From: an uncultured Lentisphaerota bacterium
Lineage (GTDB): Bacteria; Verrucomicrobiota; Kiritimatiellia; RFP12; UBA1067
Reading direction: 5' to 3'
Assembly (NCBI GenBank): GCA_946413265.1
Contig: CAMKJU010000003.1
Span: 9,087-73,086 of the forward strand
Length of the DNA: 64,000 bases
Shown: positions 1,504 to 44,562 of the stretch, piece after piece
Layout: each line of letters opens with the position of its first letter
Position numbering within the stretch: position 1 is the stretch's first letter
Made by a program: the position numbers and the translations under genes
The notes under the pieces: model-generated
What the model was told of the DNA's origin: nothing
Databases searched by the model: none
What the model saw: the letters and a program-made list of their open reading frames with translations, nothing else

Positions 1504-4500
1504 TTGAAGCGTGGAACAAAATTGTTTTCGATGTTTGCGACGACGATGGGCGTCGCGCTGTCCGCGTTCGGCGCGGGCGTAACCGGCGACGACGCGAAGG
1601 GCGCCGTCACGGGATGGGTGCGGCTGCGTGAGGCGCTGGGCGACGAGATCGACGCCGAGCTGGAGTCGGTCGCGACGTATCCGGGTGCGGACGGCAGGGG
1701 CGAGTTCCACGTGGTGAGCCTGAAGGGCGGCGGCTACGTCATTACTTCGGGCGACACGGAGATCACGCCGATTCTCGGCTACTCGAAGACCGGCACATTC
1801 GACGCAGACGAGAACAGTCCGATGTGGGCGCTCCTGACGGCAGACGTGGCGGCACGGGCCGCGGCGGTGGAGGCAAGCGGTGGGACGACAGCAAGCGTAC
1901 AACAGCAAGGGGTACGGCTTGCGGCGGCGAGCGGGGGGACGACAGCAAGCGTACAACAGCAAGATGGGGGGACAGCAAGCGTACAACAGCAAGAGGGCAA
2001 TGCCGACCAGTGGTCGAGGCTCATGGCGGCGGGCAAGAGCGGCGGGAAGCGGCTTCAGGCGAAGATGTCGTCGCCGCCTGCCGACCTGCGCGTGGCGTCG
2101 TTCGTACGGTCGAAGTGGGGCCAGTCGACGGCGACGTCCGGGAATGGCTACACCCACAACTACTACAACAACTACACGCCGAACAAGTACCCGTGCGGAT
2201 GCGTGGCGACGGCATTTGCGCAGACGATGCGCTATTTCGAGTTTCCGAATACGTCCGTGACCCCGAAGACCTTCACCTGCAAGGTAAGCGGCACTGCCAC
2301 CGACTTGACGATGCAGGGCGGCACGTACGACTGGGCACACATGCCCTACGTTCCGCGCGAGGTGACGTATGACTGGAACAACGTGATCGGCATCGCGAAA
2401 CTGACTTCGGACGCCGGCATTTCCGTCTGCATGAGCTACAAGTCGGGCGGCAGCTCGTCGAGTTCCAGCCGCGTGGGCGACAGCTTCGTGAGCACGTTCG
2501 GCTATTCCAACGCCATCATGGACTACGAGAGCGGTGGCGTCAGGGGCAATACGTTCAAGAAGAACGTCATCCCCAGCCTCGACGCCAAGCTCCCGGTCAT
2601 CCTGGGCATACAGGGCAGGCCGACCGGCAGCGCGACGGCGGATGCCGGACATTCCATCCTGACGGACGGCTACGGCTACTACAACAACCAGCTCTACATC
2701 CATCTGAACATGGGCTGGAGCGGATCGGACGACGCCTGGTACACGCCTGCCGACTCCGACACGGGCGCCATAATCAATTCGAGCGGCTACGACTTCACGA
2801 ACATCACCTGCACGGTGTTCAACATCTTCACGAACGCGACACAGTATTCCGTCATCGCGAGCGGGCGTGTCCTCGACCAGAGCGGCGAGCCGATCTCCGG
2901 CGCGACCGTCACCGCGAAGTACAACAGCACCACATACGCCACCGCGACGAGCGATGCGTACGGCGTGTATGCGCTGATCCTGCCTCCGACCTCGTCGACC
3001 CGCACCTACACGGTGAATGCGACGTGTTTCGGCTACACGAGCACCGGGGCGCGGTCGGTCTCTGCCTCCCGGACGGTAGGCGACGATGTGATCAAGGATG
3101 GAAACAACTATACGGGCTCTTTCTACAACAGGGCGTCCAACAGCAATTCCTACGACAACGATATCACGATGGAGTCGGCCAACCTGCCGCAGGCCGCGAC
3201 GCCGACGAGCGCCACGGCGGCGGAGTTCGGGACGTCCGCAAGCGTGACGCTTACATGTTCGACGGCAGGGGCGTCCATCTACTACACACTCGACGGATCG
3301 ACGCCCACTGTCTCCTCCACGCTCTACACCGGGCCGATCACGCTCACGAAGACGACGACCGTGAAGGCGCTGGCGGCCAAGAGCGGCTACGCTCGCAGCG
3401 ACGTGTTCACGCGCACGTTCGTGAGCGCCGCCGCGATCGACGAGTTCTATTTCCGCCACGACTTCTCAAACGGCACGAGGGTGTTTACGGCGGGCGAGGG
3501 ATCCGGCCTGACGCGAGACCAGACCTCGAGTACCGATTCCAACGCCAAGGCGGTCGAAGGGCCGGACGGCCCCGGAACGGCGCATCACCCCGGAAACGTG
3601 TGGGGACAGTTCGAGGATCCGACCGTCCTGCACGGCGCGTGGTCCGCCGCCATGTCGCTCTGCATGGACGCCACTGAGACCGGCATACTCGTCAGCTTCG
3701 GACGCCTCAACAAGGCTGACCAGAAGGAAGTCGCGCTCCTCTCGTCCTCCACGAAGTCGAACTTCTACTTCAAGGTGATGACGACCGATTCCAACAAGGC
3801 GAAGAGCGTGGAGAACACGTTCACGGTCGTGACCACAAACGACTTGACAGTGGGCTTCCACTCGTTCGTCGTCGCCTACAAGCCCGCGTCGGACGTGCTT
3901 AACGGCATCGGTACGTTCGACATCTACTGCGACGGCGTCCTTGTCCGCACCGTCTCGACCGACACGCCGAAGCTGCTGGGCGCGGACGTGGGCGGAATGC
4001 AGTACTGCATGTTCATGAGCGGCGGGAGCGACCTCACCGCGCTTGGGGCCGTCTCTTCGCAGGCGAACGACGCGGTGGCATTCTACGACTTCCGCTTCTA
4101 CGACCGCGCGTTCACGGCGTCCGAGGCGGCGAAATACGCGGCCGCCTATTATCCGTACGATCCGAACACGCCAGCGCAGTGGACGAACAACGACGGCACG
4201 GGCTCGTTCGACAACGCGGCGAACTGGGCGAACGGCAGAGTCCCGCATTCCGGCGACTTCATCGTCAACATTTCCGGCGATACGGCGATCGCCGTGGCCA
4301 ACACCTACAATCTGGGCGCGATGACCGTGCAGGGGACGGGCAACGTGACGTTCACGGGCGCTGGAAGCATCGGCGCGACGACGCTCGACGTCGCTTCCGG
4401 CCTGACGGTCGATACGTGCGGGAAGCTGACAGTGACCGGTTTCACTGGCGCGGGGAATGTTGTTCTCACGCCTGCCTCCGGCACGCTCGCGATTTCGTCC

Positions 4501-8081: not shown

Positions 8082-9665
8082 TCAATGCTTTTTATTGGTT
8101 GCCGATGGGCGGGCGGAGCGGGCGCCGGCCATGGAATAGACATAGAGCGCCTTTTCGATCACGTCGGCGGCGTTGGAGGGGTTGTGCTGGGATATCCATG
8201 CTTCGACGCGGCGGATACAATCCTCCGGCGAGGTGGACGCGGCGATGACGGACTGGAGCGGCGCAAGGTCGGCGGCGAAGGCCCGTGCAAGGTCGTCGGC
8301 GCGGGTGGCGGCCGGGCGGTCTTCAACGGAATCGGCTGCGGAGAGGGGGACGGGCTGGGTGACAGCAAGCGTACGACAGCAAGAGGGAACGGGCTCGGTG
8401 GCCCGTCCATCAGCTGCGGCCACGGAGGGCCGCCACCCCGATAAGGGAGCCGAAAAGGGAAGCATCGGGGATTGGGGGATGGCCGCGCGGCGGATGCCGA
8501 AGCCGATGCGCTCGGAAAGGGTATTGAGGGCGTCATCATCCGGCTCGAGGCCGGCTTCATGGAGCTTGCCGATCACGGTGAGGGTGGCGGTCTGCTCGCG
8601 GGCGGATTCTGAGCCGAAGAGTATCTTCGGCGCGCGGCCCGTGTGGCCGTTGATCGTCAGGAGCTGCTCGAAGAGCTGGCTGCGGAGCGTCGCGGCGAGG
8701 GACTTAGCATCGGCTTTTCTGATGTCATCCCGCACTTCTCCCTGGAGGTTCGCGGTGCCTCCGCCGAGCTCTCCCGTGGGTGAAGCGTTGGAGGACAGGG
8801 TTTGTCCGACAATGAGCTTCGATATCTCCTGGTTGCAGATGGTGATGAAGCGCTCGTGGCTGTTGGATGAGTCGCCGTTCGCGGCCTGGACGATCTCGAC
8901 CTCGGTGTTTTTCGCGACGACGATCGCGCCGAGGCGCACGGCAAGCCGGAACGCGCGCTCGAGCGTGGCCTTGCCCTTATCATCGGAGTACTTGCCCTTC
9001 AGGAACGGGACGCCGAAGCGCTCGAGGAGATCGGCCCACCACTGGCGCGACATCGTGCGCAGCAGCCACCAGAAAAGGATGGAGCGCATCGCGCCGCCCC
9101 AGTTGTCGGGTACGGGCATGAGGTCGCAGCGGTGGACGATGTAGCGTTCCGGCGTGACCTCGTGGGAGGTGTGGAGCGGCGTGCCGGTGTTGTCCACGTC
9201 GAAGATGTGCATCGCGCCCTGCGAGTAATCGAGGAGCTGGTAGTGGACCGGCACGAGCGCCTTGAGCGCGAAACCGCCGCCGGGAAGCGGCGCGAACACC
9301 TTCTCCACGACGGCGACGGGGAAGAGCGTGGCGTTCATCAGCCACGACTGCGCATCCGCGAAGGTGGCGTTGTCGATCACGTCGTCGCAGAGGTCGCTCG
9401 CGGCGACGTCGGCGGGGTCGTTTTTCTTGAACGGGATGACCGTGACCGGATCGCCGAGGACGGCGATCTTGCGCTTCATGAACTCGGAGCGCACCTGGTT
9501 GTCGTTGGAGATGACGTCGCGGTAGAGCGCGAAGAGCTCGCGGGTGTCGCCGTTCTGCGCCTGATCGACGATGCCCATGAGACGGTCTGCGGTGAGGTAG
9601 CGCACGAGGCTCGGCAGCTCGCGGCGGGGATCGAGGACGGTGATCTGGTCGGTGTATTCCTTCAT
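8082..9665 (-). CDS. Mu gp29-like portal protein (DUF935 family)
   Basis: The N-terminal LVRYLTADRLMGIVDQAQNGDTRELFALYRDVISNDNQVRSEFMKRK pattern is typical of DUF935 portals. Lies directly downstream of terminase. Confidence 0.85.
   Translation of the reverse strand: MKEYTDQITVLDPRRELPSLVRYLTADRLMGIVDQAQNGDTRELFALYRDVISNDNQVRSEFMKRKIAVLGDPVTVIPFKKNDPADVAASDLCDDVIDNATFADAQSWLMNATLFPVAVVEKVFAPLPGGGFALKALVPVHYQLLDYSQGAMHIFDVDNTGTPLHTSHEVTPERYIVHRCDLMPVPDNWGGAMRSILFWWLLRTMSRQWWADLLERFGVPFLKGKYSDDKGKATLERAFRLAVRLGAIVVAKNTEVEIVQAANGDSSNSHERFITICNQEISKLIVGQTLSSNASPTGELGGGTANLQGEVRDDIRKADAKSLAATLRSQLFEQLLTINGHTGRAPKILFGSESAREQTATLTVIGKLHEAGLEPDDDALNTLSERIGFGIRRAAIPQSPMLPFSAPLSGWRPSVAAADGRATEPVPSCCRTLAVTQPVPLSAADSVEDRPAATRADDLARAFAADLAPLQSVIAASTSPEDCIRRVEAWISQHNPSNAADVIEKALYVYSMAGARSARPSATNKKH
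8361..8383 (+). repeat. 24-nt motif copy (GACAGCAAGCGTACGACAGCAAG) inside the portal gene, antisense to it
   Basis: Read directly from the sequence. Translated on the minus strand as SCCRTLAVT. Flanked by a 14/16 direct duplication (8346..8361 vs 8385..8400). Confidence 0.95.
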
Positions 9666-17524: not shown

Positions 17525-17547
17525 ACAACAAGCGGACAACAGCAAGG
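17524..17547 (+). repeat. 24-nt motif copy (variant aACAaCAAGCGGACAACAGCAAGG) starting at the stop codon of 17270..17524
   Basis: Read directly from the sequence. Followed by AAAAGGAACCGAAG and the ATG at 17562. Confidence 0.85.
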
Positions 17548-17561
17548 AAAAGGAACCGAAG

Positions 17562-19058
17562 ATGAAACAGGAAAAGCCGCACAAGTTCTACGTCGGCGAG
17601 GGGTACGGCATCTGGGAGATGGACGGCGAAACCCACCGCCGCTTCCCCGACGTGTTCTACCGCGCGAAGCCCGGCGACTCGGCCGGCAAGTACACGATCG
17701 GCGACATGGCCGTCATGAACCAGCCGACAACCAAGAAGCGGTTCGGCATGTTCGTGATCGCGAACGTGGAGAGCGGCGACTTCGGCGGCACGGGGCTGAA
17801 GTACAAGCTCACGGTGCATCCCTACGGGACTCCGGAGGAGATCAGCGGACCGAAGCCCGCCGCCCCGATACAGCAAGCGGACAACAGCAAGGAAAAGGAA
17901 CCGAAGATGAACACTGCCAGTGGCGGACGGTGCAGATTCACAGATGAAAATGGATTCTGCACGAACGAAAACATGCAGGGCGGCGGATTCCGGTGCTTCG
18001 GCGCAGGGTGCGAATGCAGGGAGCCGATTCGCGGACCGAAGCCCGCCGCCCCGATACAGCAAGCGGACAACAGCAAGAAAGAACCGAAGATGAAAAGACC
18101 TACCTACAAGATGCAGCGCATCAAGCTCGCGGACTGCAAACCACACGCCGACGCGGAGGCCTACTCGGCCTCCACCGAGGACCGCGCCGCACTCGGCAAC
18201 TCAATCGAGGAGACCGGGGTGCTTTCGCCGATCGCCGTGGTGCCGGACGAGGACAGCAAGCGTACAACAGCAAGCAACGACGCCGAACCCCAGAAGTGGT
18301 TCGTGATCGACGGCATCGGGCGCATGAACGCCCTCATCGCCGCCGGCGAGACCGAGACCGACGCCCAGGTTTTCGACCTCGGCGATCTGAGCGTGGCCGA
18401 GTTCGTGGTGTGCAAGAACGCCATGATGCGCAAGGTCACAACCGGCACGCGCGTGATGGCATACCTGAAATGCCATGAACGCGAAGTACTGGCCGCTGCG
18501 GACCCGGAGAAGTACCAGGGCCGTAAAGAAAGCAAGTGGCGCAACAAGGTGGCTGCGGTTTCACGTGAAACCGCAGCCGACGAAAAGGGTTGGGGCGCGA
18601 AGGAGATAGCGGAGCGCATCGGGGTGTCGAAGAACGACGTGCTGGCGGGGATTGAGCTGCTGAAGGAGGTGAGCGGGGAGACAGAAAGCGTACAACAGCA
18701 AGGGAAGTACGTGCAGCTGGACCTCTTCGAGACGATGGACTCGGTGATGCACGGCGAGACGCCGATCAGGCGGTGGAAGGCGGCGGCGAGCGGCAAGGTG
18801 AGCAAGGTGGGCGGCAAGGCGGCCGCCGACTACGTGGGCATCGGCGCGCGCACGATGGTGAGCCTCATCGGGCTGTTCGAGAACTGGCAGACGGTCCCGA
18901 TGGAGAGCCGCGGGCCCATCGTCGAGCGGTTCAAGCTGGCGTTGGAGGCCGCGCCGGAGGATTTCAGGGCGGTGCTGGAGGATGTGGTTGGATCTCACGC
19001 AGAGGCGCAGAGAGGCAGAGAGCGCAGAGGGAAGTTCCGCAAAGGGACGCGGTGGTAG
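17562..19058 (+). CDS. ParB-like nuclease-domain protein with two stop-less N-terminal modules (candidate internal starts at 17907 and 18090)
   Basis: C-terminal part IKLADCKPHADAEAY...LGNSIEETGVLSPIAVVP...WFVIDGIGRMNALIAAG follows a ParB/Srx-like pattern. The modules are joined by the repeated GPKPAAPIQQADNSK(E)KEPKM linker. Confidence 0.65.
   Translation: MKQEKPHKFYVGEGYGIWEMDGETHRRFPDVFYRAKPGDSAGKYTIGDMAVMNQPTTKKRFGMFVIANVESGDFGGTGLKYKLTVHPYGTPEEISGPKPAAPIQQADNSKEKEPKMNTASGGRCRFTDENGFCTNENMQGGGFRCFGAGCECREPIRGPKPAAPIQQADNSKKEPKMKRPTYKMQRIKLADCKPHADAEAYSASTEDRAALGNSIEETGVLSPIAVVPDEDSKRTTASNDAEPQKWFVIDGIGRMNALIAAGETETDAQVFDLGDLSVAEFVVCKNAMMRKVTTGTRVMAYLKCHEREVLAAADPEKYQGRKESKWRNKVAAVSRETAADEKGWGAKEIAERIGVSKNDVLAGIELLKEVSGETESVQQQGKYVQLDLFETMDSVMHGETPIRRWKAAASGKVSKVGGKAAADYVGIGARTMVSLIGLFENWQTVPMESRGPIVERFKLALEAAPEDFRAVLEDVVGSHAEAQRGRERRGKFRKGTRW
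17847..17909 (+). repeat. extended ~60-nt unit (GGACCGAAGCCCGCCGCCCCGATACAGCAAGCGGACAACAGCAAGGAAAAGGAACCGAAGATG), copy 1
   Basis: Contains the 24-nt motif core at 17869..17892 plus an SD-like AAGGAAAAGGAA and an in-frame ATG. Confidence 0.9.
18033..18092 (+). repeat. extended ~60-nt unit, copy 2 (3-nt shorter)
   Basis: Motif core at 18055..18077. Ends in an ATG that starts the ParB-like module. Confidence 0.9.
18252..18274 (+). repeat. 24-nt motif copy, in CDS frame 1 (DSKRTTAS)
   Basis: Exact GACAGCAAGCGTACAACAGCAAG. Confidence 0.95.
18680..18703 (+). repeat. 24-nt motif copy (GACAGaAAGCGTACAACAGCAAGG), in CDS frame 2 (TESVQQQG)
   Basis: One mismatch to the consensus. Confidence 0.9.
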
Positions 19059-19082
19059 GACAGCAAGCGTACAACAGCAAGG
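19059..19082 (+). repeat. 24-nt motif copy forming the entire intergenic gap between the ParB-like stop and the transposase ATG
   Basis: TAG(19056-58)|GACAGCAAGCGTACAACAGCAAGG|ATG(19083). Confidence 0.95.
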
Positions 19083-20816
19083 ATGACCATGGAAAAGGCT
19101 GCGGAGAGATCGGCGAAGGTCGGCGAGGTGCGGCGGCTCGTGGCGGAGGGCGCGACGCTGGACGCCGCGCTGCTGGCGGCGGGGGTGAGCGAGACCACCT
19201 ACCGCCGCTGGGCGGCGAAATTCGACGCGGGCGGCGTTGCGGCGCTCTCGGACGCGCCGAAGAGCGGGCGGCCGCCGGTGGTGAAGCTCGACGAGGACGA
19301 GAAGAAGTGCCTGCGGCGCATCTACCTCCAGTCGAACCGGGCGGAGCGCAGCGGCTCGATGACGATGGCGGCGCGGATCGCGGCGCACGACCCGGCGACG
19401 TGCCTCCGGCCCGAGACGCGGGCGGCGATCCTCGCGGAGCGCTCCTCGAAGCACCACCTTCCGGTGGAGGTGCGCCGGGCGATGCGCGAGGTGTCGCCGG
19501 TGGCGGTGGCGCGTTACCGCGACCCGCGCGAGGGGCAGAACAACGGCATCTACGTGCCGGGGTGGCTGCGGCGCGACGAGGAGACGGGGCGGTTGCTGCT
19601 GCCGGGCGAGCGGCAGGTGTGGGACGACGCGAGCGTGAACGTGGCGGTGGCGGTGCCGTGGGCGGGGCGCGGGGACAAGGCGGGCGACCGCTGGGGATGG
19701 CGCGCGGCGCGCTACCAGCTGCTCGCCGGGATCGACTGCGCGACGGACTTCTTCTGCGGGTTCGGCTACGTGATGCGCACGAGCGACGGGTACCGGGCGT
19801 GCGACGTCGCGAACGTGATGCACGAGGTGTGGCGTCAGCAGGGGTACATGCCGAAGAAGGTGGTGCTGGAGGGCGGCAGCTGGCAGGCGAAGCCGACGAT
19901 GGACTTCCTGCGCACGGCGGGCGTGGGGGTGGTGGACGCCAAGGGCCGGCCGAACCAGAAGCTGGTGGAGAACTACTTCAACCGCCTCTGGACGGCGCTC
20001 TCGATCTTCCTTCCGGGCTACGGGCAGATCGGGCGGTACCGTGGCGAGATGCGCAAGGAGAACCTGAACTGGATGAAGGTGCTGAGCGGGAGCGCGGATC
20101 CGAGGAAATACTTCCCGACGCTGAAGACGTTTCTGGAGGCGCTGAACAAGGCCGTCGCCTACCTCAGGTGGGAGAAGGTGGAGAGCCGGATCTACGGGAC
20201 GTGGAGTCCGGAGGAGCTGTACCAGGGCGCGGCGGCGAACGGTCTGCCGCTCGTGGAGGGTCTGGAGCGGTACGCGATGCCGGTGGCGGCGCGCCGGACG
20301 CTGCGTCGCGGCGGGATGGTGTTCGTGACGGCGGAGACGCAGCTGGAGGGACTCAGGCACGAGTACGCCTTCGCGACGCGGGACGGCTGGAAGTACGACG
20401 GCGCGCCGGTGGTGGTGCGCTTCGACCCGGTGACGGCGGCGGCGCGGGGGGCGTCGATCGAGCTTGCCCAGGCGTGGCGCGACTTCCGCGCGGGGACGGT
20501 GATCGACGGCGCGGCGCCGTGCGTGAGCGCGCCTCCGGACTTCGTGAACGACGCGGGGCTTTGGGACCTGCGCGGCGCGGGCCGCCACGAGCAGCGGGCG
20601 AACCGCGCGGCGGTGCGCACGGTGGTGACGGCCTACGACACGCGCGGGCCGGTGCGGACGAGGTTCGAGGACGGCGAGGAGAAGGGCTGGGGGCTGCGCG
20701 GCGGCGTGCCCGCGGCGGCGGAGGCGCCGGAAGCGGCGGAGGAATGCGACAGCAAGCGTACGACAGCAAGGCTTGCGGCCCTGGAGGCGGAGGAGCGGAT
20801 GCTGGCCTACGCGTGA
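19083..20816 (+). CDS. Mu-like DDE transposase (MuA analogue)
   Basis: N-terminal HTH (GVSETTYRRWAAKFDAGGVAALSD). Candidate DDE residues in VWDDASVNV, LAGIDCATDFF and VVLEGGSWQ. Positioned upstream of the MuB-like ATPase. Confidence 0.8.
   Translation: MTMEKAAERSAKVGEVRRLVAEGATLDAALLAAGVSETTYRRWAAKFDAGGVAALSDAPKSGRPPVVKLDEDEKKCLRRIYLQSNRAERSGSMTMAARIAAHDPATCLRPETRAAILAERSSKHHLPVEVRRAMREVSPVAVARYRDPREGQNNGIYVPGWLRRDEETGRLLLPGERQVWDDASVNVAVAVPWAGRGDKAGDRWGWRAARYQLLAGIDCATDFFCGFGYVMRTSDGYRACDVANVMHEVWRQQGYMPKKVVLEGGSWQAKPTMDFLRTAGVGVVDAKGRPNQKLVENYFNRLWTALSIFLPGYGQIGRYRGEMRKENLNWMKVLSGSADPRKYFPTLKTFLEALNKAVAYLRWEKVESRIYGTWSPEELYQGAAANGLPLVEGLERYAMPVAARRTLRRGGMVFVTAETQLEGLRHEYAFATRDGWKYDGAPVVVRFDPVTAAARGASIELAQAWRDFRAGTVIDGAAPCVSAPPDFVNDAGLWDLRGAGRHEQRANRAAVRTVVTAYDTRGPVRTRFEDGEEKGWGLRGGVPAAAEAPEAAEECDSKRTTARLAALEAEERMLAYA
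20748..20771 (+). repeat. 24-nt motif copy in the transposase 3' region (CDSKRTTAR)
   Basis: GACAGCAAGCGTACGACAGCAAGG. Confidence 0.95.
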
Positions 20817-20890
20817 CCATTTCCCCGCGCGGAGAGGCTAGGACGCTCCGCGCGGGGGATTCAACAACCAACAAACCAAAGGAGCACAAG

Positions 20891-21070
20891 ATGCACACAG
20901 CAAGCAGAGAATGGGCGGACCGGGTGGCCGCCCGGAACGCGGTGGAGACCGCGAAGGCGCGCGCCGACGAGGCGCGAAAAAACGAGGCGCTTGCCGCGCA
21001 GGGCTTTCTGCCCCTCACCTACGGGGAGCAGCTGATCCCGCTGAGCGCAGCCGGGAAGGAGGCGGAGTGA
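20891..21070 (+). CDS. small hypothetical protein (59 aa)
   Basis: AAAGGAG RBS with an A/C-rich leader. Stop overlaps the next start. Confidence 0.45.
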   Translation: MHTASREWADRVAARNAVETAKARADEARKNEALAAQGFLPLTYGEQLIPLSAAGKEAE

Positions 21071-21408
21071 TGAAGAGAACGAAAGATGACGGTAACCGCC
21101 TTTCACAGTTGCTCGGTTCAATCAAGCGAGCCAGGACAACCGTGTTGGGCAGTACGGCCCAAATAGTCAAACTAGGTGAATGCGAGGATTCCCAGGCCAT
21201 TACTGCATTGAACAGAGCCGCCGTAAAATGCCTGCATCAGTCATGCTACTGGCTTGATCAGGCCGTGGATACACTTGAGCATTCGATCAAGAGAGTCAGA
21301 GAGACGGAAGATGCGGACAGCAAGCGTACTACAGCAAGGGTGCAGCCGCTTTCGCCGGAGGCGGAGCTTGCGGCCACGGTGGCGCGGCAGAAGGGAGAGA
21401 ATGCATGA
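21070..21408 (+). CDS. hypothetical early protein
   Basis: ATG overlaps the upstream TGA. Contains a motif copy read as DSKRTTAR. Confidence 0.5.
   Translation: MKRTKDDGNRLSQLLGSIKRARTTVLGSTAQIVKLGECEDSQAITALNRAAVKCLHQSCYWLDQAVDTLEHSIKRVRETEDADSKRTTARVQPLSPEAELAATVARQKGENA
21316..21339 (+). repeat. 24-nt motif copy (GACAGCAAGCGTACTACAGCAAGG)
   Basis: Read directly from the sequence. Confidence 0.9.
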
Positions 21409-21491
21409 GCGGGGACGAGATCATATTCTTCGTGTGGCTGGCCACGTGGCTGCCGTTCGCGATCGCCTACTTCATCAGCGAGGCGAAGTGA
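21405..21491 (+). CDS. tiny membrane peptide (28 aa)
   Basis: IIFFVWLATWLPFAIAYFI. Overlaps the upstream stop. Confidence 0.3.
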   Translation: MSGDEIIFFVWLATWLPFAIAYFISEAK

Positions 21492-21512
21492 CAGCAAGAA
21501 GAAGGAGCAAGC
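21490..21512 (+). repeat. decayed motif copy (GACAGCAAGaagaaggAGCAAGc) filling the gap before the MuB-like ATG
   Basis: Both outer ACAGCAAG/AGCAAG halves are retained. The upstream stop TGA overlaps the first bases, as at 27789. Confidence 0.6.
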
Positions 21513-22463
21513 ATGAAGAACCAAGTGGAAAACGAACTGGTGGAGACAGCCGCGAAGATCGCGGCGTGGGGCGAGTCGCACGGCATGAGCCGCGCGCAGC
21601 TCGTGCGCAACTTCACCGACCTCGGCAGCGAGAAGAGCTTCCGCGACATCTCGGCCGGGAACCTGGAGGGCTACAACGCGGAGAACCAGCTCACGAAGTA
21701 CCGGGCGGTGTACGCCACGATGGAGGAGCTGGCGAACCAGGGCGGCGAGGAGCGCATCTACGACGACCTCGGCACCGTGGTGAAGATCCGCAGGGCGTTC
21801 CTGGGCGTGGTGAAGGCCACGGGCACGAATCGCGTGCTGATCGTGCAGGGCGAAAGCGGCGTGGGGAAGACCACCGCCGTGGGCCTCCTGCGCGGCAAGT
21901 ACGGCACGGGGCGCATCAGCTACGTGGAGGCGAGCGACGTGTGGGCGGACTCGCCCAACGCCTTCCTCGGCGCGATCCTGCGCGCGCTCGGCGTCACGGA
22001 GCTGCCGGCTGGGCGCGTGCAGCGTCTGGAGGAGGTGCAGGCGCGGCTTGCGATCTCGCGGCGGTGTCTCGTGATCGACGAGGCGCACCACCTCGGCCCG
22101 CACTGCCTCAACACGGTGAAGACGCTGGTGAACACGACGCCGGGGGAGTTCATCCTGGTGGCGATCCCGACCTTGTGGAACAAGCTGCAGGCGCACGCCT
22201 ACCAGGAGGCGAAGCAGATCGCGACGAACCGTCTCTCGGAGCGCGTGAAGCTCACGCTCGACGAGGCGGACATCCGCACGTACCTCTCGAAGCGGTTCAA
22301 GGACGCCCAGCCGGCGGAGCTTAAGGTTGCGGCGAAGATCATCCGCCCCAACGCGCTCCTCGCGGGCAACTACGCCTTCGTGCGCGACGTGGCGCGCGAG
22401 CTCGCCTCGCTCGAGGCCGACGCGGTGAGCCGCGCGGTGACGGCGGTGACGGGGAGAAGGTAG
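21513..22463 (+). CDS. MuB-like AAA+ DNA transposition ATPase
   Basis: Walker A GESGVGKTT and Walker B LVIDEAHHL. Downstream of the transposase. Confidence 0.8.
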   Translation: MKNQVENELVETAAKIAAWGESHGMSRAQLVRNFTDLGSEKSFRDISAGNLEGYNAENQLTKYRAVYATMEELANQGGEERIYDDLGTVVKIRRAFLGVVKATGTNRVLIVQGESGVGKTTAVGLLRGKYGTGRISYVEASDVWADSPNAFLGAILRALGVTELPAGRVQRLEEVQARLAISRRCLVIDEAHHLGPHCLNTVKTLVNTTPGEFILVAIPTLWNKLQAHAYQEAKQIATNRLSERVKLTLDEADIRTYLSKRFKDAQPAELKVAAKIIRPNALLAGNYAFVRDVARELASLEADAVSRAVTAVTGRR

Positions 22464-22503
22464 TGGAGTGTAAAATGTAAAGTGTAAAGTGTAAAGTGAA
22501 AGG
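22463..22503 (+). repeat. tandem heptamer array (GTGTAAA)n
   Basis: gtggagtgtaaaatgtaaagtgtaaagtgtaaagtgaaagg lies between the MuB-like stop and the DUF3164 RBS. Confidence 0.9.
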
Positions 22504-22512
22504 ACAAACACA

Positions 22513-23199
22513 ATGGCAAAGCAAGTGACGACGATGCGCGACTCGAACGGGAACGACGTCCCGCTCAAGTACGTGAGCAAGTACGACAAGGCGAAGGACA
22601 AGGCCGTGCGCAAGGTGCTGGCCCGGTTCCTCCGCGCGCGGGAGCTGCTGGAGGGCGTGGTCGCCGAGACCATCGCCGAGCTGGAAGCGCTCGCGGACAC
22701 GAAGGAGAAGCTTGGCGCGAAGGGAAACTTCTCGGCGCGCAGCTTCGACGGCCTCATCCAGGTGAGCATCCGGCAGCAGTACAACATCTTCCTCGACGAG
22801 CGCGTGGTGAAGGCGCGCGAGCTGATGCTCGGCTACGTGGAGAAGGTGCTGGCGAAGGTGGGCGGCAACGACGCGCAGGCGCTGCGGCTCATCGTGGCGG
22901 AGGCGTTCAAGGCGAACGCGCAGGGCTTCCTCTCGACGGGGAAGATCATGTCGCTGCTCCGGATGGAGATCGACAACGCCGACTGGCGCGAGGCGAAGAG
23001 GATCCTCCAGGATTCGATCAAGCCGCAGAAGGGAAAGCGGTATCTCGTGTGCGAGCGGCGCGCGAGCACGCAGGCGGAGTTCCGCCCGGTGCGGCTGGAC
23101 ATCGCGGATTGCTGGCCGGAGGAGGATGAGAGTGTAAAGTGTAAAATGGAAAGTGTAAAATGCGAAGAGCAGAAAGGAGGTGATCAAGATGCCGGTTAA
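22513..23199 (+). CDS. DUF3164-like Mu-family protein
   Basis: MRDSNGNDVP...GAKGNFSARSFDGLIQVSIRQQYNIFLDERV is colinear with the DUF3164 pattern. Confidence 0.65.
   Translation: MAKQVTTMRDSNGNDVPLKYVSKYDKAKDKAVRKVLARFLRARELLEGVVAETIAELEALADTKEKLGAKGNFSARSFDGLIQVSIRQQYNIFLDERVVKARELMLGYVEKVLAKVGGNDAQALRLIVAEAFKANAQGFLSTGKIMSLLRMEIDNADWREAKRILQDSIKPQKGKRYLVCERRASTQAEFRPVRLDIADCWPEEDESVKCKMESVKCEEQKGGDQDAG
23132..23162 (+). repeat. second (GTGTAAA)n array, inside the 3' end of the DUF3164-like CDS
   Basis: gtgtaaagtgtaaaatggaaagtgtaaaatg is translated as SVKCKMESVKC. Confidence 0.85.
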
Positions 23200-23386
23200 G
23201 TGGACAAGGCCGAAGAAGGCCGAAGACAGCAAGCGCACGACAGCAAGTGCGCCGAAGCCCGAGAAGCCGAAGGGCGACAAGCCCCAGGCCGAAGAGCTGA
23301 AGCCCGAGAAGCCGAAGGGCGGCAAGCCGAAAGGCGGCAAGCCGAAAGGCGACGATAAGCCCAATGGCAAGAAGGAGGCCAAGTGA
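23189..23386 (+). CDS. small lysine-rich protein with KPKG repeats
   Basis: AAAGGAGG lies 8 nt upstream. PEKPKGDKP...PEKPKGGKPKGGKPKGDDKP. Confidence 0.5.
   Translation: MPVKWTRPKKAEDSKRTTASAPKPEKPKGDKPQAEELKPEKPKGGKPKGGKPKGDDKPNGKKEAK
23225..23247 (+). repeat. 24-nt motif copy (GACAGCAAGCGCACGACAGCAAG)
   Basis: Two mismatches to the consensus. Read as DSKRTTAS. Confidence 0.85.
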
Positions 23387-23985
23387 TGGCGAACGCCGTT
23401 GACAGGGCCGTGCGCGCGCAGGGCGGGGCCGTGGTCAAGCCGCACCAGGTGAAGGCCATGGTCCTCGCCGCGCGCCGCGCGTACAAGGTGCAGTCGGACG
23501 CCGGCCTCGTCGATGACGGGGTCGACTTCGACAGCTGGCGGCGGGCGACGCTCCACGACGTGGTGGGTGCCGCCGCGCCGGATTCCTTCCGGGCCGTGAC
23601 GCAGCGCGACTACGCCGCCGTGCTCGGCTACTTCAGCGAGCTCGCCGGAAATTCCGGAAAATCCGGAGATTCCGGAAAATCCGGGATCGCCGACGAACAG
23701 CGGCGGGCGCAGTGGTCGCTGGGACTTGTGGAGAGAGAAACGGCGGATGCCTTCGGCGGGCGCGAGGGGGCGCGGCGGTACGCCGACGCGCTCTTCGCGC
23801 GGATCCACAAGACCGACCGATACGCCGCCACGGCGAAGCAGACATGGGCGGTCATTTTCACCCTGCGGAACCGTGCCGCGAAAATCCGCTCAAAAACGGC
23901 CCTAGAAGCGCGGGGCGAGGCGGGGGTACACTCGCCGCTCCCCGCCGCTTCCAAGCGTTTTCCCGCGTTTTCCCGCGGCTTCTAG
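23383..23985 (+). CDS. GemA (Mu gp16)-like protein
   Basis: Called from position in the Mu order and the pattern ...DFDSWRRATLHDVVG...SFRAVTQRDYAAVLGYF. Contains an in-frame 9-nt x4 repeat (GNSGKSGDSGKSG). Confidence 0.4.
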   Translation: MMANAVDRAVRAQGGAVVKPHQVKAMVLAARRAYKVQSDAGLVDDGVDFDSWRRATLHDVVGAAAPDSFRAVTQRDYAAVLGYFSELAGNSGKSGDSGKSGIADEQRRAQWSLGLVERETADAFGGREGARRYADALFARIHKTDRYAATAKQTWAVIFTLRNRAAKIRSKTALEARGEAGVHSPLPAASKRFPAFSRGF

Positions 23986-24013
23986 GCGATTCCACGGTTG
24001 GAGGCGTGCGGCT

Positions 24014-24556
24014 ATGGTCGAAAACATGGTGCAGATGGACCTTTTCGGGGGTGAAAGGCCGGGCAAGCCCGGCCATCCGGACAACCTGGCGGGGTCGCAG
24101 ATTCCGCCGCCGCTTGCCGTGGAGCCGGAGCCGAACATGGTGCGCGTGGCGCCGGGGCGGCACGCCTGGGTGCCGAAGGACGCGGCGACGCCGCCGGACG
24201 CCTACGTGATGTGCCGGTGGTCGAAGCAGGAGGACGGCACCTACGCGCCGGTGCCGGTGGCGGGGCGGTACGTGCGGCTTGATTCCAGGACGGCCGCCCT
24301 TCTCGGCTTCCCGGCGCGCGCCGGCGAGGACGGCAACGAGCGCTGCCGCTACGACACGATCCTCCGCCTCGGGCGAGCGGGGTTCGTGGACGTGGTGCGC
24401 GTGGCGCCGAACACGATCCTCCTCGACCTCGACAGCTGGTACCGCCACCTCGCCGACTGCATGGACAACCCCGACCGCTGGAACGAGGGCGGAGAGGACC
24501 GCGAGACGTACCTTCAGGCAAACGGCCTCGGCGGGTGGAGGCGGTATGTCGAATGA
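24014..24556 (+). CDS. hypothetical phage protein
   Basis: Long ORF with normal composition in the operon. Confidence 0.5.
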   Translation: MVENMVQMDLFGGERPGKPGHPDNLAGSQIPPPLAVEPEPNMVRVAPGRHAWVPKDAATPPDAYVMCRWSKQEDGTYAPVPVAGRYVRLDSRTAALLGFPARAGEDGNERCRYDTILRLGRAGFVDVVRVAPNTILLDLDSWYRHLADCMDNPDRWNEGGEDRETYLQANGLGGWRRYVE

Positions 24557-24723
24557 ATTGCAATTGGCGGCCTGGGCCATGGAAAATCAGGAAATGGGGA
24601 AGCCGAGGGCGTGCGCACGCCGCAGGCCGTGAATCCGTGGCGCAAGCGGGGACGCGCTCGAATACTACCAGCAAACCGTGGCGCTCCGGAAAGACGGAGA
24701 ATTTGCTATACTAGGAGACACCG

Positions 24724-25980
24724 ATGACAGCGAACCTGACAATAGAGACATTCCCGAACGAGGCGGCCGCGGACTACATCCACGGCAAGGCCGTCGCGGA
24801 TCCAACGCACTTCGGCAACCTTCCGCCGCAGCTGAAGCAGCGCGCGTTCACGGTGGCGGGCATCGAGCAGCTGGACGCGCTGCAGCGCATCCGCGACGCG
24901 GTGGCGAAGCTTCCGGAGGGCGCGAGCTGGGACGAGGCGAAGAAGGAGATCGCCGCCGAGATCTCGCCGTTCGTGGGCGGCGACGACAAGGCGGCGAAGG
25001 CCCGGGCGAACTTCATGCTTCGCACGCACGGCTTCCAGGCGTATGCGGTTGCGCGGCACCAGCAGCAGATGGAGGACATCGAGATTTTTCCGTACTGGAA
25101 GTACGAGACGGTGGGCGATTCGCGGGTGCGTCCCGGACACGCCGCGCTCGACGGGAAGATACTAAGGGCCGACGATGACTGGTGGAAGACCCACTACCCG
25201 CCATGGGACTGGGGATGCCGGTGCATCGTGATCGAACTGACCGAACTGGACGCGAAGAAGCAGGGCATTACGCCTCCAGAGGAAATGCCCACGCCGGGAC
25301 GGAGCGAGAGCTTTGCGTTCGATCCAACGAACGCGGCGATCGACCTCGACAGATACCGCAAGGACCCAAGGTTTGAGGACGACGCAGACTGGCGGCTCAA
25401 ATTCGTGACGCCCGCGAAGAACGTGACCGTGCAGACCGACGACGGCGGCACCATGTCGATGTGGGATCTCTGCCTGAAGACGCAGACGGCCCGCGTTTCC
25501 AGTAACATCGCAGGAATGAGCCGGACGGACTCGGTCGAATACTTCTCGGTAATATCCCGCAAGACCGGCGTGACAGAGGCGACGATCCAGGGCACGGCGG
25601 AGGAGGTGAATTTCAACGTTGACAAGCTCAAGTACGGTGACTACATCACAATACACACGCACCTTAAGGGCGGCAATATCCCTTCAGCTGCCGACATGGC
25701 GACATATCGGACGCGGTTCGACGGCGAAGACGCGAACACGCCCTCATGGGACTACGTCGTGGCCGTTCCAAAGGCAGCAGGTATTGTGCCGCGCGCCAGG
25801 CTCATCGTGACGAAGGGGCGCATCCCAGACACAGACATGAAGGTACTCGAGCAGATCAACCGGCGTCTTGCGGCGGCCAGGGAGAGCGATCGGATGGCGA
25901 TACTCAAAGAATACACCGACAAGCTCGACGAGCTTGAAAGCAAGGGGCTCATCGAATACAAGGAAACGAAAGGAGTGTGA
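24724..25980 (+). CDS. MuF-like minor head protein fused to a C-terminal JAB/JAMM metalloprotease-like domain
   Basis: MuF/SPP1-gp7 core at aa 95-175 (YETVGDSRVRPGHAALDGKIL...WDWGCRC). C-terminal IHTHLKGGNIPSAAD matches HxHx7Sx2D exactly (nt 25654..25695), with an upstream Glu in SVEYF. Confidence 0.75.
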   Translation: MTANLTIETFPNEAAADYIHGKAVADPTHFGNLPPQLKQRAFTVAGIEQLDALQRIRDAVAKLPEGASWDEAKKEIAAEISPFVGGDDKAAKARANFMLRTHGFQAYAVARHQQQMEDIEIFPYWKYETVGDSRVRPGHAALDGKILRADDDWWKTHYPPWDWGCRCIVIELTELDAKKQGITPPEEMPTPGRSESFAFDPTNAAIDLDRYRKDPRFEDDADWRLKFVTPAKNVTVQTDDGGTMSMWDLCLKTQTARVSSNIAGMSRTDSVEYFSVISRKTGVTEATIQGTAEEVNFNVDKLKYGDYITIHTHLKGGNIPSAADMATYRTRFDGEDANTPSWDYVVAVPKAAGIVPRARLIVTKGRIPDTDMKVLEQINRRLAAARESDRMAILKEYTDKLDELESKGLIEYKETKGV

Positions 25981-25982
25981 CC

Positions 25983-26183
25983 ATGACAAGGGAAGAGGCC
26001 AAAGAACAGCTGGTGGGGCTTATGGCGTACAACTACGACATGACTGGCTCCGAGCCCGACTATGCGACGGTGTGGAACCGCATACAGGATCTGACGGACT
26101 TCATCTGGTACCATCAGCCGGATCCCGGCGAATGGGAGTTGCCGGAAGGGTACAAGGCGTTTTTGGAGAGGGCCAGGGCATGA
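25983..26183 (+). CDS. hypothetical head-module protein
   Basis: AAAGGAG RBS. Tightly packed between the MuF and gpG-like genes. Confidence 0.5.
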   Translation: MTREEAKEQLVGLMAYNYDMTGSEPDYATVWNRIQDLTDFIWYHQPDPGEWELPEGYKAFLERARA

Positions 26184-26632
26184 TCACGGTCACGATAGAC
26201 ACCTCGAACCTTACGTGGAAGCTCGCGGACTTCCCGGAAGCGCTTGCACGGGCGCAGCGGAACGCGCTGAAGGTCATCGGCAACGTCGTAAAGAACCACA
26301 CGACGGAGGCATTCAGGGATCCCAACTACAGGCCGTCGCCGTGGGCTCCGCGCAAGGACAAAAAGGCGACGCATCAGCTGCTGATCAAGAGCGGAGACCT
26401 TCGGCGAAACTTCCGATCCGTGGTGACGGGGCCGGACACCGTGGTGGTGGGCACGAAGGTGAAGTATGCAGGCTACCACCAGTTCGGCACGAAGCACATG
26501 CCGGCGCGGCCTTTCTTCCCGATCGATGAACACGGGCAGCTCACGCCGACGGTGATGCGCGACATAAAAGACAATGTCGAGGCAATCTACAAAAAGGAGA
26601 TCGACAAGGTATTCGGGAACGGGGGCGGCTGA
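26180..26632 (+). CDS. Mu gpG-like virion morphogenesis protein
   Basis: LLIKSGDLRRNF...VVGTKVKYAGYHQFGTKHMPARPFF is typical of this family. Confidence 0.75.
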   Translation: MITVTIDTSNLTWKLADFPEALARAQRNALKVIGNVVKNHTTEAFRDPNYRPSPWAPRKDKKATHQLLIKSGDLRRNFRSVVTGPDTVVVGTKVKYAGYHQFGTKHMPARPFFPIDEHGQLTPTVMRDIKDNVEAIYKKEIDKVFGNGGG

Positions 26633-26634
26633 GA

Positions 26635-26658
26635 GACAGCAAGCGTACGACAGCAAGG
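26635..26658 (+). repeat. 24-nt motif copy 2 nt after the gpG-like stop
   Basis: GACAGCAAGCGTACGACAGCAAGG. Confidence 0.95.
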
Positions 26659-26701
26659 CTAACTGATGATATAAACACTTCCTTTTTCAGTGCCGCACAG
26701 T

Positions 26702-26733
26702 CCGCACGGGCGCAAGCCCGCGCGGCGTTTTTT
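26702..26733 (+). terminator. rho-independent terminator
   Basis: CCGCACGGGC-GCAA-GCCCGCGCGG (10-bp stem, 1 mismatch) followed by CGTTTTTTAT. Confidence 0.7.
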
Positions 26734-26752
26734 ATATAAACTGTGCGCCGTT

Positions 26753-27790
26753 ATGGGCAAGCCAGACAAAGTGATACTTCTTCGCACAACCGGCGTCGCC
26801 GTGAGCCTTTCGGCTGACGCGGCGAAGCTGCCGCGCCGGATCAAGGTGCTGAACTGGGGCGACAACCCGAACTGCCACGGGAAGCGCGTGAACGTGGGCG
26901 CGCTCTTCGTGAAGTGCCTGAACGCCGACACCTATCCCTACCGCAAGGTGGCGCTCGACTTCGAGCACAACACCTTCCCCGGCACGGCGGCGTACAAGGA
27001 GTCGAAGGAGCCGCGTCCCGTCGCGGGCTTCGGCACGATCGAGGCCGTCGAGGGCGACGGCGTGTACATCACGATGTCGAGCTGGACTCCGGACGGCGAG
27101 AAGATGGCGGCGAACTACGCCGACGTCTCGGCCGGGGCCGTGACCGACAAGGAAGGCAACCTCGTGGCCGTGGCGAGCGTGGCGCTGTGCCGCGCCGGCG
27201 CGGTGGACGGCATGGATTTCGTGGAGGCGCCGCTGAGTGGCGGTATCTCTTCCGCGCTGAGCGGAATCATCAACAACCAGGAAGGCGGGCTGAAGCCCGC
27301 CGCTCCGATACAGAAAGGAAATGCAATGGACTACAAGGCATTGCTATTGAAGCTGCTGGGGCTTGGCGAGGACGCCACGGACGAGGCCATTCAGGCCGCG
27401 CTCGATGCGGCCGGCAAGAAGCCCACGCAGGAGGAACAGGACGCGGCACTATCGGCTGCGGTGAAGACTGCTGTCGCGGAGGCCGTGAAGCCGATCGAGG
27501 AGAAGGTGGCCGCGCTTTCGGCGGCAGCCGTCGCCCACGAGAAGGCCGACCTCATCGCCGAGGCCGCCCGCGAGGGCAAGGTGATCGCGCTCGGCGCGGA
27601 CGCCATCGGGAAGATCACGGTCGAAGACCTGAAAGCCACGATCGCGAAGACGCCCGTGACGGTGCCGCTCAACGCGAAGACGCCGACGAACATGAAGGAG
27701 AATGCCGCCGAGGGCGATGTGCCCGAGGAGCTGCGCCAGATCGCGCTCAACTGCGGGGTGAGCCCGGATATCTTCAAAGCGGGGAAGTGA
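26753..27790 (+). CDS. Mu gpI-like head protease with nested scaffold (internal start at 27326)
   Basis: The RIKVLNWGDNPN...VALDFEHN pattern matches the Mu-like prophage I protein. The C-terminal Ala/Glu-rich helical part begins at MDYKALLLKLLGL, after an SD-like AAAGGAAA. Confidence 0.8.
   Translation: MGKPDKVILLRTTGVAVSLSADAAKLPRRIKVLNWGDNPNCHGKRVNVGALFVKCLNADTYPYRKVALDFEHNTFPGTAAYKESKEPRPVAGFGTIEAVEGDGVYITMSSWTPDGEKMAANYADVSAGAVTDKEGNLVAVASVALCRAGAVDGMDFVEAPLSGGISSALSGIINNQEGGLKPAAPIQKGNAMDYKALLLKLLGLGEDATDEAIQAALDAAGKKPTQEEQDAALSAAVKTAVAEAVKPIEEKVAALSAAAVAHEKADLIAEAAREGKVIALGADAIGKITVEDLKATIAKTPVTVPLNAKTPTNMKENAAEGDVPEELRQIALNCGVSPDIFKAGK
27292..27313 (+). repeat. copy of the 5' half of the extended unit (GAAGCCCGCCGCTCCGATACAG) before the nested scaffold start
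   Basis: Matches 17852..17873 and 18038..18059. Translated as KPAAPIQ. Confidence 0.8.
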
Positions 27791-27812
27791 CAGCAAGCGT
27801 ACAACAGCAAGG
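27789..27812 (+). repeat. 24-nt motif copy overlapping the protease stop, followed by AAAGGCAAAACATG
   Basis: tGACAGCAAGCGTACAACAGCAAGGaaaggcaaaacATG(27824). Confidence 0.95.
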
Positions 27813-27823
27813 AAAGGCAAAAC

Positions 27824-28264
27824 ATGAAAAAACTGATTGCAATGGCCGCGATGGCGGCAATGGCGCTCGCGGCATTCGCGGGCGAGCACGACACGCCGCA
27901 GGTGAGCGGCGACTACGCCCAGCTCGCGGCGGGCGAGGCGGTCTACGCCGGCAACATCGCAGCCGTGGGCACGAACGGCTGCGCCTACGCGGTGAACACC
28001 TCCGCCGTTGGCGGCACGCTCACCGTGTGCGGGGTGTTCCTGCACAACGCGGCGAAAGGCGAGAACGTGACGGTGAAGCGCGGGGGATTCATCCTCGAGA
28101 ACGCGACCGGCGCCGGCGCGATCGCGAAGAAGGACATCGGCGCGACGGCCTACTCCGTGGCGACGAACCCCTGGACCGTGACCAAGACGAGCGGCACGAA
28201 GACCGTCGGCAAGGTGGCCGACGTGCGCGACGACGGCAAGGTCGTGGTGGTGGTTGGCCGGTAG
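27824..28264 (+). CDS. DUF2190-like head protein (decoration or auxiliary) with signal-peptide-like N-terminus
   Basis: Lies between the scaffold and the major capsid. Gly/Ala/Val-rich beta pattern. N-terminus MKKLIAMAAMAAMALAAFAG. Confidence 0.5.
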   Translation: MKKLIAMAAMAAMALAAFAGEHDTPQVSGDYAQLAAGEAVYAGNIAAVGTNGCAYAVNTSAVGGTLTVCGVFLHNAAKGENVTVKRGGFILENATGAGAIAKKDIGATAYSVATNPWTVTKTSGTKTVGKVADVRDDGKVVVVVGR

Positions 28265-28273
28265 CGGCGAGGA

Positions 28274-28297
28274 AACAGCAAGCGTACAACAGCAAGG
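28274..28297 (+). repeat. 24-nt motif copy in the major-capsid leader
   Basis: aACAGCAAGCGTACAACAGCAAGGaaaggcaaagacATG(28310). Confidence 0.95.
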
Positions 28298-44530: not shown

Positions 44531-44562
44531 GATTTCCAAAACACAAACAAGGGAGAAACATA

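Follow-up and report, generated by a model that had tools for sequence, protein, structure and literature searches.

By what route did a short dispersed repeat come to lie in frame within a phage portal gene, and does the direct repeat around it record how it arrived? The question is raised by a 64,000-nucleotide stretch of DNA, here called the window, from an uncultured Lentisphaerota bacterium of the Kiritimatiellia (contig CAMKJU010000003.1, assembly GCA_946413265.1). It carries a Mu-like prophage whose portal gene holds one copy of a 22-nt motif (ACAGCAAGCGTACRACAGCAAG) between two nearly identical 16-nt sequences. An earlier examination of the sequence had proposed a 39-nt insertion made by an active mechanism which duplicates its target (the original prediction). 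The 39-nt block was found to be a real, in-frame, lineage-specific insertion with one member of a 22-nt dispersed-repeat family. About an even chance is given to the explanation as a whole, namely that the insertion was made in frame, that the target coding for QPVP was duplicated in the same event, and that the process was an irregular copy-in and not the work of a staggered-cut transposase.

The flank repeat and the linker of the portal gene

The two 16-mers, F and F' (Table 1), bracket ACAGCAAGCGTACGACAGCAAGA exactly as had been described, are identical at 14 of 16 positions and have a start-to-start spacing of 39 nt. Translation of the minus-strand open reading frame (ORF) of 527 amino acids gave ...GRATEPVP-SCCRTLAVT-QPVPLSA at this site. 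The predicted preservation of the reading frame was borne out, the motif piece (23 nt) and the flank (16 nt) together making 39 nt. Since either piece alone shifts the frame while both together keep it, the motif piece and the flank copy most likely arose in a single event.

As a control, the 5' flank of one motif copy was paired with the 3' flank of another, both 16-nt windows lying no more than 4 nt from the motif. None of 27,285 such permuted pairs reached 14/16 (maximum 13), and the portal flank repeat is therefore a real duplication and not chance. A weaker flank similarity that had been pointed out at 18680 came to 9/16 by the same measure, a value equalled by about 18% of permuted pairs, and is at chance level. 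The same filled allele is carried by three related genomes (G020, G021 and G022), by contig L015 (protein P0003) and by two metagenome contigs. Their flank copies, CACCGAGCCCGTCCCC and CACCCAGCCCGTCCCC, match at 15/16 (loci L015, L076, L077, L083, L084 and L085), and the window allele has gained one further substitution. Folding of positions 8336-8460 as single-stranded DNA gave no significant structure (z = -0.91).

For comparison of the linker, 37 homologues were aligned and the linker itself was extracted from 120. Across the 120, indels are concentrated in the stretch from PFSA to (V/I)PLSA, which is a hotspot for them. In distant portals, and in several of the close ones, this stretch is empty or one to four residues long (PFSAVPLSA, PFSAQPVPLSA, PFSAMPVPLSA), and at least six unrelated kinds of insert occur among close relatives. 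The motif peptide was present in four different linker contexts (the window allele, P0005, P0007 and P0023), and repeats without the motif were also seen (EGRAPSRP twice in P0010; SMPPSQ/SMPPYQ in P0024). In empty alleles, such as those of L013 (PFSAMPVPLSA) and L080 (PFSAQAVPLSA), QPVP, MPVP or QAVP stands directly before LSA, the DNA reading GCC-ATG/CAG-CCC-GTT/GTC-CCC-CTC-TCC. Since these alleles hold QPVP-type codons at this place, the downstream QPVP flank is the ancestral target and the upstream EPVP flank its duplicate. The 16-nt flank repeat is probably this target, duplicated in the event that brought the motif.

Based on the alignment, the motif copy lies in sequence inserted relative to homologous portals. 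The original prediction of an insertion, as opposed to ancestral sequence, was thus supported by minimal homologues lacking the segment. The 13-residue indel which it had expected was absent: no homologue had a gap of exactly 13 residues, and each homologue has either the 30-codon insert in full, a different insert or no insert at all. A metagenome scan with a unique 21-mer beside F' returned two filled portal alleles and one unrelated match, and no motif-less allele. An AlphaFold2 model made from the alignment, weak overall (mean predicted local distance difference test score, pLDDT, of 58), has coil with the lowest pLDDT (27-32) at roughly residues 390-450, a stretch that joins the portal core to a three-helix unit at the C-terminus. 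According to this model and the alignment, the insertion site is a hypervariable, permissive and probably disordered inter-domain linker.

The portal assignment was based on a Pfam profile match to PF06074 (Portal_Mu; E=1.9e-60, residues 46-381), which spans the portal core domain and makes the product a Mu-type portal protein. There were 304 homologues, named gp29-like or DUF935 in metagenome-assembled genomes (MAGs) of Kiritimatiellae and Lentisphaerae, and all 120 of the 120 listed carry PF06074. Neighbouring genes code for MuF, Mu protease I, gpT, a MuB-like AAA protein/ATPase, DUF3164 and a putative transposase ORF bearing a helix-turn-helix. No related locus was found when the portal was searched against viral contigs. 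In the C-terminal domain of the portal, positions 8263-8301 contain a 15-nt direct repeat (14/15, spacing 24 nt) coding for ADDLA...AADLA; it is kept in all close homologues and is therefore an old internal duplication with no tie to the motif. Among 41 genomes (G000, which contains the window, 24 of the same genus and 16 of other genera; those compared are all fragmented MAGs), the portal at 97-98% identity was present only in the motif-rich G000, G020, G021 and G022. This coincidence may reflect close kinship, or a repeat expansion linked to the phage.

Table 1. Positions in the window of the portal insertion, its parts and the other motif copies
Feature	Position	Strand	Basis or remark
Portal gene of the Mu-like prophage (527 amino acids, DUF935/gp29 type), host gene of the insertion	8082..9665	-	ORF list and translation, Pfam
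Lineage-specific insertion, 90 nt (30 codons), residues 407-436 (PLSGWRPSVAAADGRATEPVPSCCRTLAVT), between conserved PFSA and QPVPLSA	8358..8447	-	Homologue alignment, empty alleles
Flank copy F, GGGGACGGGCTGGGTG; coding strand C ACC CAG CCC GTC CCC (T-QPVP); holds the ancestral QPVP target	8346..8361	-	Repeat family D1
Motif copy ACAGCAAGCGTACGACAGCAAG(A), antisense to the portal gene, read as SCCRTLAV	8362..8384	+	
Flank copy F', GGGAACGGGCTCGGTG; coding strand C ACC GAG CCC GTT CCC (T-EPVP); duplicate of F	8385..8400	-	
Filler PLSGWRPSVAAADGR, rest of the insert	8401..8447	-	Largely made up of nearby portal sequence in short copies, direct or inverted
Further prophage motif copies 1-6	Starts 17525, 17870, 18056, 18253, 18681, 19060	+	
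Further prophage motif copies 7-12	Starts 20749, 21317, 23226, 26636, 27790, 28275	+	
Three in-frame chromosomal motif copies (TASVQQQ), linker I69 propeptide/C10 protease domain, ORF 1504-7020	1888..1994	+	
Single minus-strand motif copy of the window, near the N-terminus of a large surface-protein ORF (44098-49368)	44602..44624	-	

The motif family and its filled and empty sites

The family consensus is the 22-mer ACA[G/A]CAAGCGTAC[A/G]ACA[G/A]CAAG, or G-ACAGCAAGCGTACRACAGCAAG-RTG with its edges. Internally it repeats ACAGCAAG directly, at a period of 14 nt (repeat family D6, GACAGCAAG...GACAGCAAG), and the consensus, read directly from the sequence, is free of stop codons in all six frames. 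The flank logo of the copies held only G at -1 and TG at +2/+3. The window has sixteen matches, 15 on the plus strand, where 0 were expected. About 140 copies are present in the 4.7-Mb genome, while a reversed-pattern control gave 0 at up to 3 mismatches and 5 at 4; the density is about 1 per 33 kb genome-wide and 1 per 4 kb in the window. By genome, 133 copies were counted in G000, 102 in G022, 79 in G020 and 14 in G021; a further twenty genomes from the genus had 0-9, and those from other genera had none. Carriers in public records include rumen MAGs (among them RUG10619, RUG14821 and RUG12514), Kiritimatiellae RGIG bins from goat, sheep, yak and buffalo, and six IMG/VR contigs. The repeat family is restricted to a single, genus-level clade of Kiritimatiellae from the rumen and to the Mu-like prophages of this clade, and literature searches gave no description of it in Kiritimatiellae.

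Based on a crude classification of gene context (longest ORF and codon score), some 120 of the 140 copies lie within ORFs, about 89 in sense and 31 in antisense and in all frames, the commonest reading being TASVQQQ. The twelve further prophage copies (17525..28297) share their DNA strand with the portal copy; several stand just 5' of a ribosome-binding site and ATG, and others are in frame within genes. Copies also occur antisense in N-terminal signal peptides (MKIAKTCCCTLAVT...). At least ten genes for secreted proteins share a near-identical signal peptide, MK(I/F)AKTCCCTLAVTLC... (G000 contigs C26, with six copies, C7, C12, C4, C78, C180 and C55), the core of which is the motif read antisense; this core is conserved at the DNA level among the paralogues and also in G020 and G022. 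Inverted, head-to-head doublets with a 13-nt loop were found on C24 (four times), C39, C164 and C200, with several more in G020. Tandem arrays have periods of 24-69 nt, every one a multiple of three, and differ in copy number between relatives. Across orthologous pairs, 498 of 506 motif positions are identical, against 89% for the flanks, an estimate partly biased by the choice of loci. The effects of gene strand and GC skew on copy orientation were not separable (discordant classes of 14 and 11), and sharing of proximal flanks between copies was no higher than in control windows.

The original prediction that insertion is accompanied by target duplication did not hold for the family. In the 92 solitary motif copies the flank similarity equals that of the permuted controls, without excess, and only the portal copy stands out. 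Five clean or near-clean comparisons of filled and empty sites were available, which is a small number. A signal peptide of the twin-arginine translocation (Tat) type has a 30-nt insert (AAG-motif-GAGCC) in G020 and is empty in G000 and G022, with no duplication. The 30-nt insert at position 23226 of the window is missing from the 95%-identical prophage of G020 and lies in low-complexity sequence with no clear duplication. At C111:6193 an insert of 36 nt (13-nt filler, motif and A), empty in G021, has no flank repeat, and at C45:1304 a net insert of 51 nt has a flank repeat of only 6 nt (GCCGTG). A related prophage from sheep rumen has, in its MuF gene, a replacement with a net gain of 15 nt. 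The insert lengths of 30, 30, 36, 39 and 51 nt are all in frame.

These sites bear on the view that the motif is a mobile element moved by a dedicated staggered-cut enzyme, every insertion duplicating its target and the older duplications having mutated away. The near-perfect 16-nt direct repeat abutting the portal motif on both sides is what such an element would leave, and there are weaker flank repeats in the portal alleles of L009 (11/15, same 39-nt period) and L012 (TTCTCCGCT/TCATCCGCT), the 6-nt repeat of the C45 copy, and an expansion in a single clade (133, 102 and 79 copies versus 0-14 elsewhere in the genus). However, young clean insertions whose flanks are 85-97% identical to the empty site lack a duplication, the 92 solitary copies do not exceed the control, and the length of the duplication varies (0, 6, 9 and 16 nt; 0, 0, 0 and about 6 nt in the filled and empty pairs). 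By the standards of a miniature inverted-repeat transposable element (MITE), no fixed-length target-site duplication was found, the insert lengths are variable, and the motif is an internal direct repeat without terminal inverted repeats. No cognate transposase was found among the Y1/RAYT family, the only one examined, which is present across the genus without correlation to motif count. A fixed-stagger transposase behind the portal flank repeat is disfavoured because the duplication length is inconsistent, terminal inverted repeats are missing and no enzyme was found in the Y1/RAYT family; we consider the mobile-element explanation quite improbable.

At several orthologous sites the motif alternates, at the same boundaries, with GC-rich hairpin elements or with a (CTCACAA)n array. 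The site that holds the motif in G000 (C148:2131) and G022 is occupied in G020 by a CTCACAA heptamer array about as long (C49:10620-10960, L094), and GC hairpins of the type GTAGGGCGG...CCGCC take the place of the motif at other sites. A second mini-element of 33 nt (TTACGCCRGGCRGAGCCGGCGAATCAGGACAA) stands directly 5' of the motif at C15:12912-12944 and 17694-17727 in G000; it is absent at both C15 sites in IMG/VR locus L203, a viral contig 91-98% identical.

The flank repeat could also be unrelated to the arrival of the motif, as a product of a slippage-prone linker, as the remnant of a 39-nt tandem duplication (motif plus flank, twice) in which the first motif was replaced, or as some other local duplication. 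Arrays of motif plus spacer are indeed common and variable in copy number among relatives; that at C18:31151/31190 has the same 39-nt period, and in another a 51-nt unit was gained in G000 relative to G022. Portal linkers P0010 and P0024 hold internal duplications, and hairpin elements replace the motif at the same sites elsewhere. On the other side, at least two extra steps are required, each keeping the frame, no remains of a first motif are seen upstream of F', and a single tandem duplication cannot produce 1.4 units. This origin is judged unlikely.

Filler, mosaic breakpoints and the proposed mechanism

The filler segment occurs once in the genome at up to 4 mismatches. Its pieces could be matched to the portal gene nearby: GCCCGTCC is an inverted match to 8348-8355 (within F), ATCAGCTGCGG a direct match to 8331-8341 with a spacing of 78 nt, and GGCCGCCACCC an inverted match to 8303-8313 (11/11). 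Local matches of at least 9 nt cover 59 of the 63 nt of 8385-8447, compared with 23.8 +/- 10.5 in shuffled sequences (0/300 reach this value), and 2/400 random genomic 63-mers had a local coverage of 59, which ranks the segment among roughly the highest 0.5% of controls. Taken together these 63 nt, F' included, look like a patchwork of nearby portal sequence. Direct and inverted local templates together with one ectopic piece are the product expected of serial template switching.

Based on these observations the irregular copy-in may be pictured as follows. During replication or break repair, a 3' end would leave its own template for an ectopic copy of the motif and then return a few bases behind its point of departure, by which 16 nt would be duplicated. 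Further short switches to nearby direct and inverted templates would give the remainder of the 90-nt insert, and only those products would survive whose length is a multiple of three and which lie in linkers tolerating extra residues. Copy-in with such a filter would account for insert lengths that vary (30, 36, 39 and 51 nt) and yet always keep the frame. It would likewise allow flank duplications to range from 0 to 16 nt and different lineages to hold different mini-repeats at the same sites.

Several points weigh against this reading. The patchwork statistic is post hoc, having been noticed after inspection, and its strength is moderate (2/400 controls). The portal was the one site at which local templating was seen; for the fillers at C111 and C45 there is no local source. 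Template switching alone gives no reason why one 22-mer should be copied so frequently, and it leaves the conservation of the motif above its flanks (498/506 versus 89%, a biased estimate) unexplained. Flank repeats in the portal alleles P0005 (11/15, also with period 39) and P0023 (8/9) hint that duplication is perhaps commoner than the genome-wide comparison indicates. Finally, no pre-insertion allele, that is, filler without motif, was found, which leaves the 39-nt step itself an inference.

The prophage of the window was also compared, over positions 20957-21500, with that of G020 (contig C98, L086), the two being 95% identical. Homology stops and resumes exactly at motif copies. Upstream of 21317 the genes are unrelated between the two, and at 21491-21498 only a half-motif (ACAGCAAG) is left in G000, the corresponding place in G020 being taken by a full motif and an additional ORF of about 140 nt.

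Another view would make the motif a selected cis-element, serving as a binding site or as a short joint of homology for recombination among phage modules and among surface-protein domains, which reached the portal by exchange of the linker plus C-terminal module between phages. It would fit the position of the motif at the mosaic breakpoints (21317; half-motif at 21491), its single strand throughout the prophage and its orthologous conservation above the flanks, although the latter estimate comes from loci picked for a perfect motif in one genome. P0003, divergent over its N-terminal 400 residues and identical from the linker on, indicates a module boundary beside the linker; this breakpoint, however, is upstream of the entire insert and not at the motif. 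Portal sequence is homologous on both sides of the motif in all alleles, the 16-nt duplication is unexplained by module exchange, and no binding protein is known. This view as a whole is held to be unlikely; the motif may act as a recombination joint or a protein-binding site, as a rival to the copy-in or as an added layer.

A broader proposal, to which a low probability is given, treats the motif, the GC hairpins and the heptamer arrays as interchangeable mini-cassettes, open in six frames, that would be written into permissive sites by a strand-specific and possibly phage-linked copy-in or recombination. They would act as homology joints for module swaps of Mu-like phages and for in-frame shuffling of signal peptides and surface-protein domains in the host.

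Comparison with known repeats and significance

Rickettsia palindromic elements (RPEs) and other intragenic MITE-like repeats are short dispersed repeats that lie in frame in unrelated genes (review PMC10969869; PMC1779305). The motif resembles RPEs in its in-frame insertion into unrelated coding genes, as a peptide segment which the protein tolerates: inserts and array periods are multiples of three, and the portal site is a hypervariable linker of pLDDT 27-32. RPEs, however, are about 100-150 bp and palindromic, whereas the motif is a direct repeat of 22 nt with variable filler, and is also found in intergenic positions and in tandem arrays.

Repetitive extragenic palindromic (REP) sequences and their doublets (REPINs) are mobilised by RAYT transposases of the Y1 HUH type (PMC3116915). 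Like the motif they are short, high in copy number and lineage-specific, with no fixed target duplication on insertion, and some motif copies form inverted short-loop doublets capable of forming hairpins. REPs are palindromic and extragenic and flank the RAYT gene, whereas the motif is non-palindromic, is mostly intragenic by the crude classification and does not flank the RAYT-like gene of G000. RAYT (PF01797) was rejected as the mover of the motif: its occurrence across the genus shows no relation to the number of motif copies, and in G000 another repeat surrounds the gene. This RAYT-like ORF (Y1 HUH, HVHVLL; C41:28099-28875, and the start of C55) has on both sides a 42-nt repeat coding for AAKMAAFPV/NLTGNAAILAA, which belongs to a different repeat family; the assembly breaks there too.

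The small dispersed repeats of heterocyst-forming cyanobacteria, a subject of Elhai et al. in 2008, are said to be about 21-27 nt and mainly intergenic. A passage of another paper mentions cyanobacterial repeats of about 20 bp that 'might be mobile' (PMC2884548). The likeness to the motif lies in the size class, in the insertions seen against orthologues, in the position beside or inside other small repeats and in the lack of a known enzyme. They belong, however, to another phylum and are unrelated in sequence, and the motif is mostly in-frame coding and enriched in a prophage.

Templated insertions (fork stalling and template switching, FoSTeS; microhomology-mediated break-induced replication, MMBIR; synthesis-dependent microhomology-mediated end joining, MMEJ) are established mainly in eukaryotes and are normally one-off events with arbitrary templates. 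The portal insert is similar in its filler of short direct and inverted local copies plus an ectopic piece, and in the variable flank duplications. It differs in that the same 22-mer recurs about 140 times here, a number for which some further cause, for instance selection or a favoured template, has to be assumed. A DNA uptake sequence (DUS, or uptake signal sequence, USS) was rejected: it would be expected at about one copy per kb, even in the core genome and with no prophage enrichment, which was not the pattern found. Both this reading and a Chi-like one run counter to the density of the copies, the length of the motif and its in-frame position within genes, while a protein-binding array is kept as a rival.

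There are few documented cases of very short dispersed repeats that land in frame within proteins. The portal linker offers many alleles of one site (empty, with the motif in four contexts, and with other inserts) and is maybe a natural record of the arrival of a mini-repeat. For annotation, odd cysteine-rich or glutamine-rich peptides in these genomes (SCCRTLAV, TASVQQQ) are to be taken as translated repeats and not as functional motifs. If template switching is the true mechanism, the repeats would mark a repair pathway that makes new linker peptides and mosaic joints in the phage and surface-protein genes of uncultured rumen bacteria.

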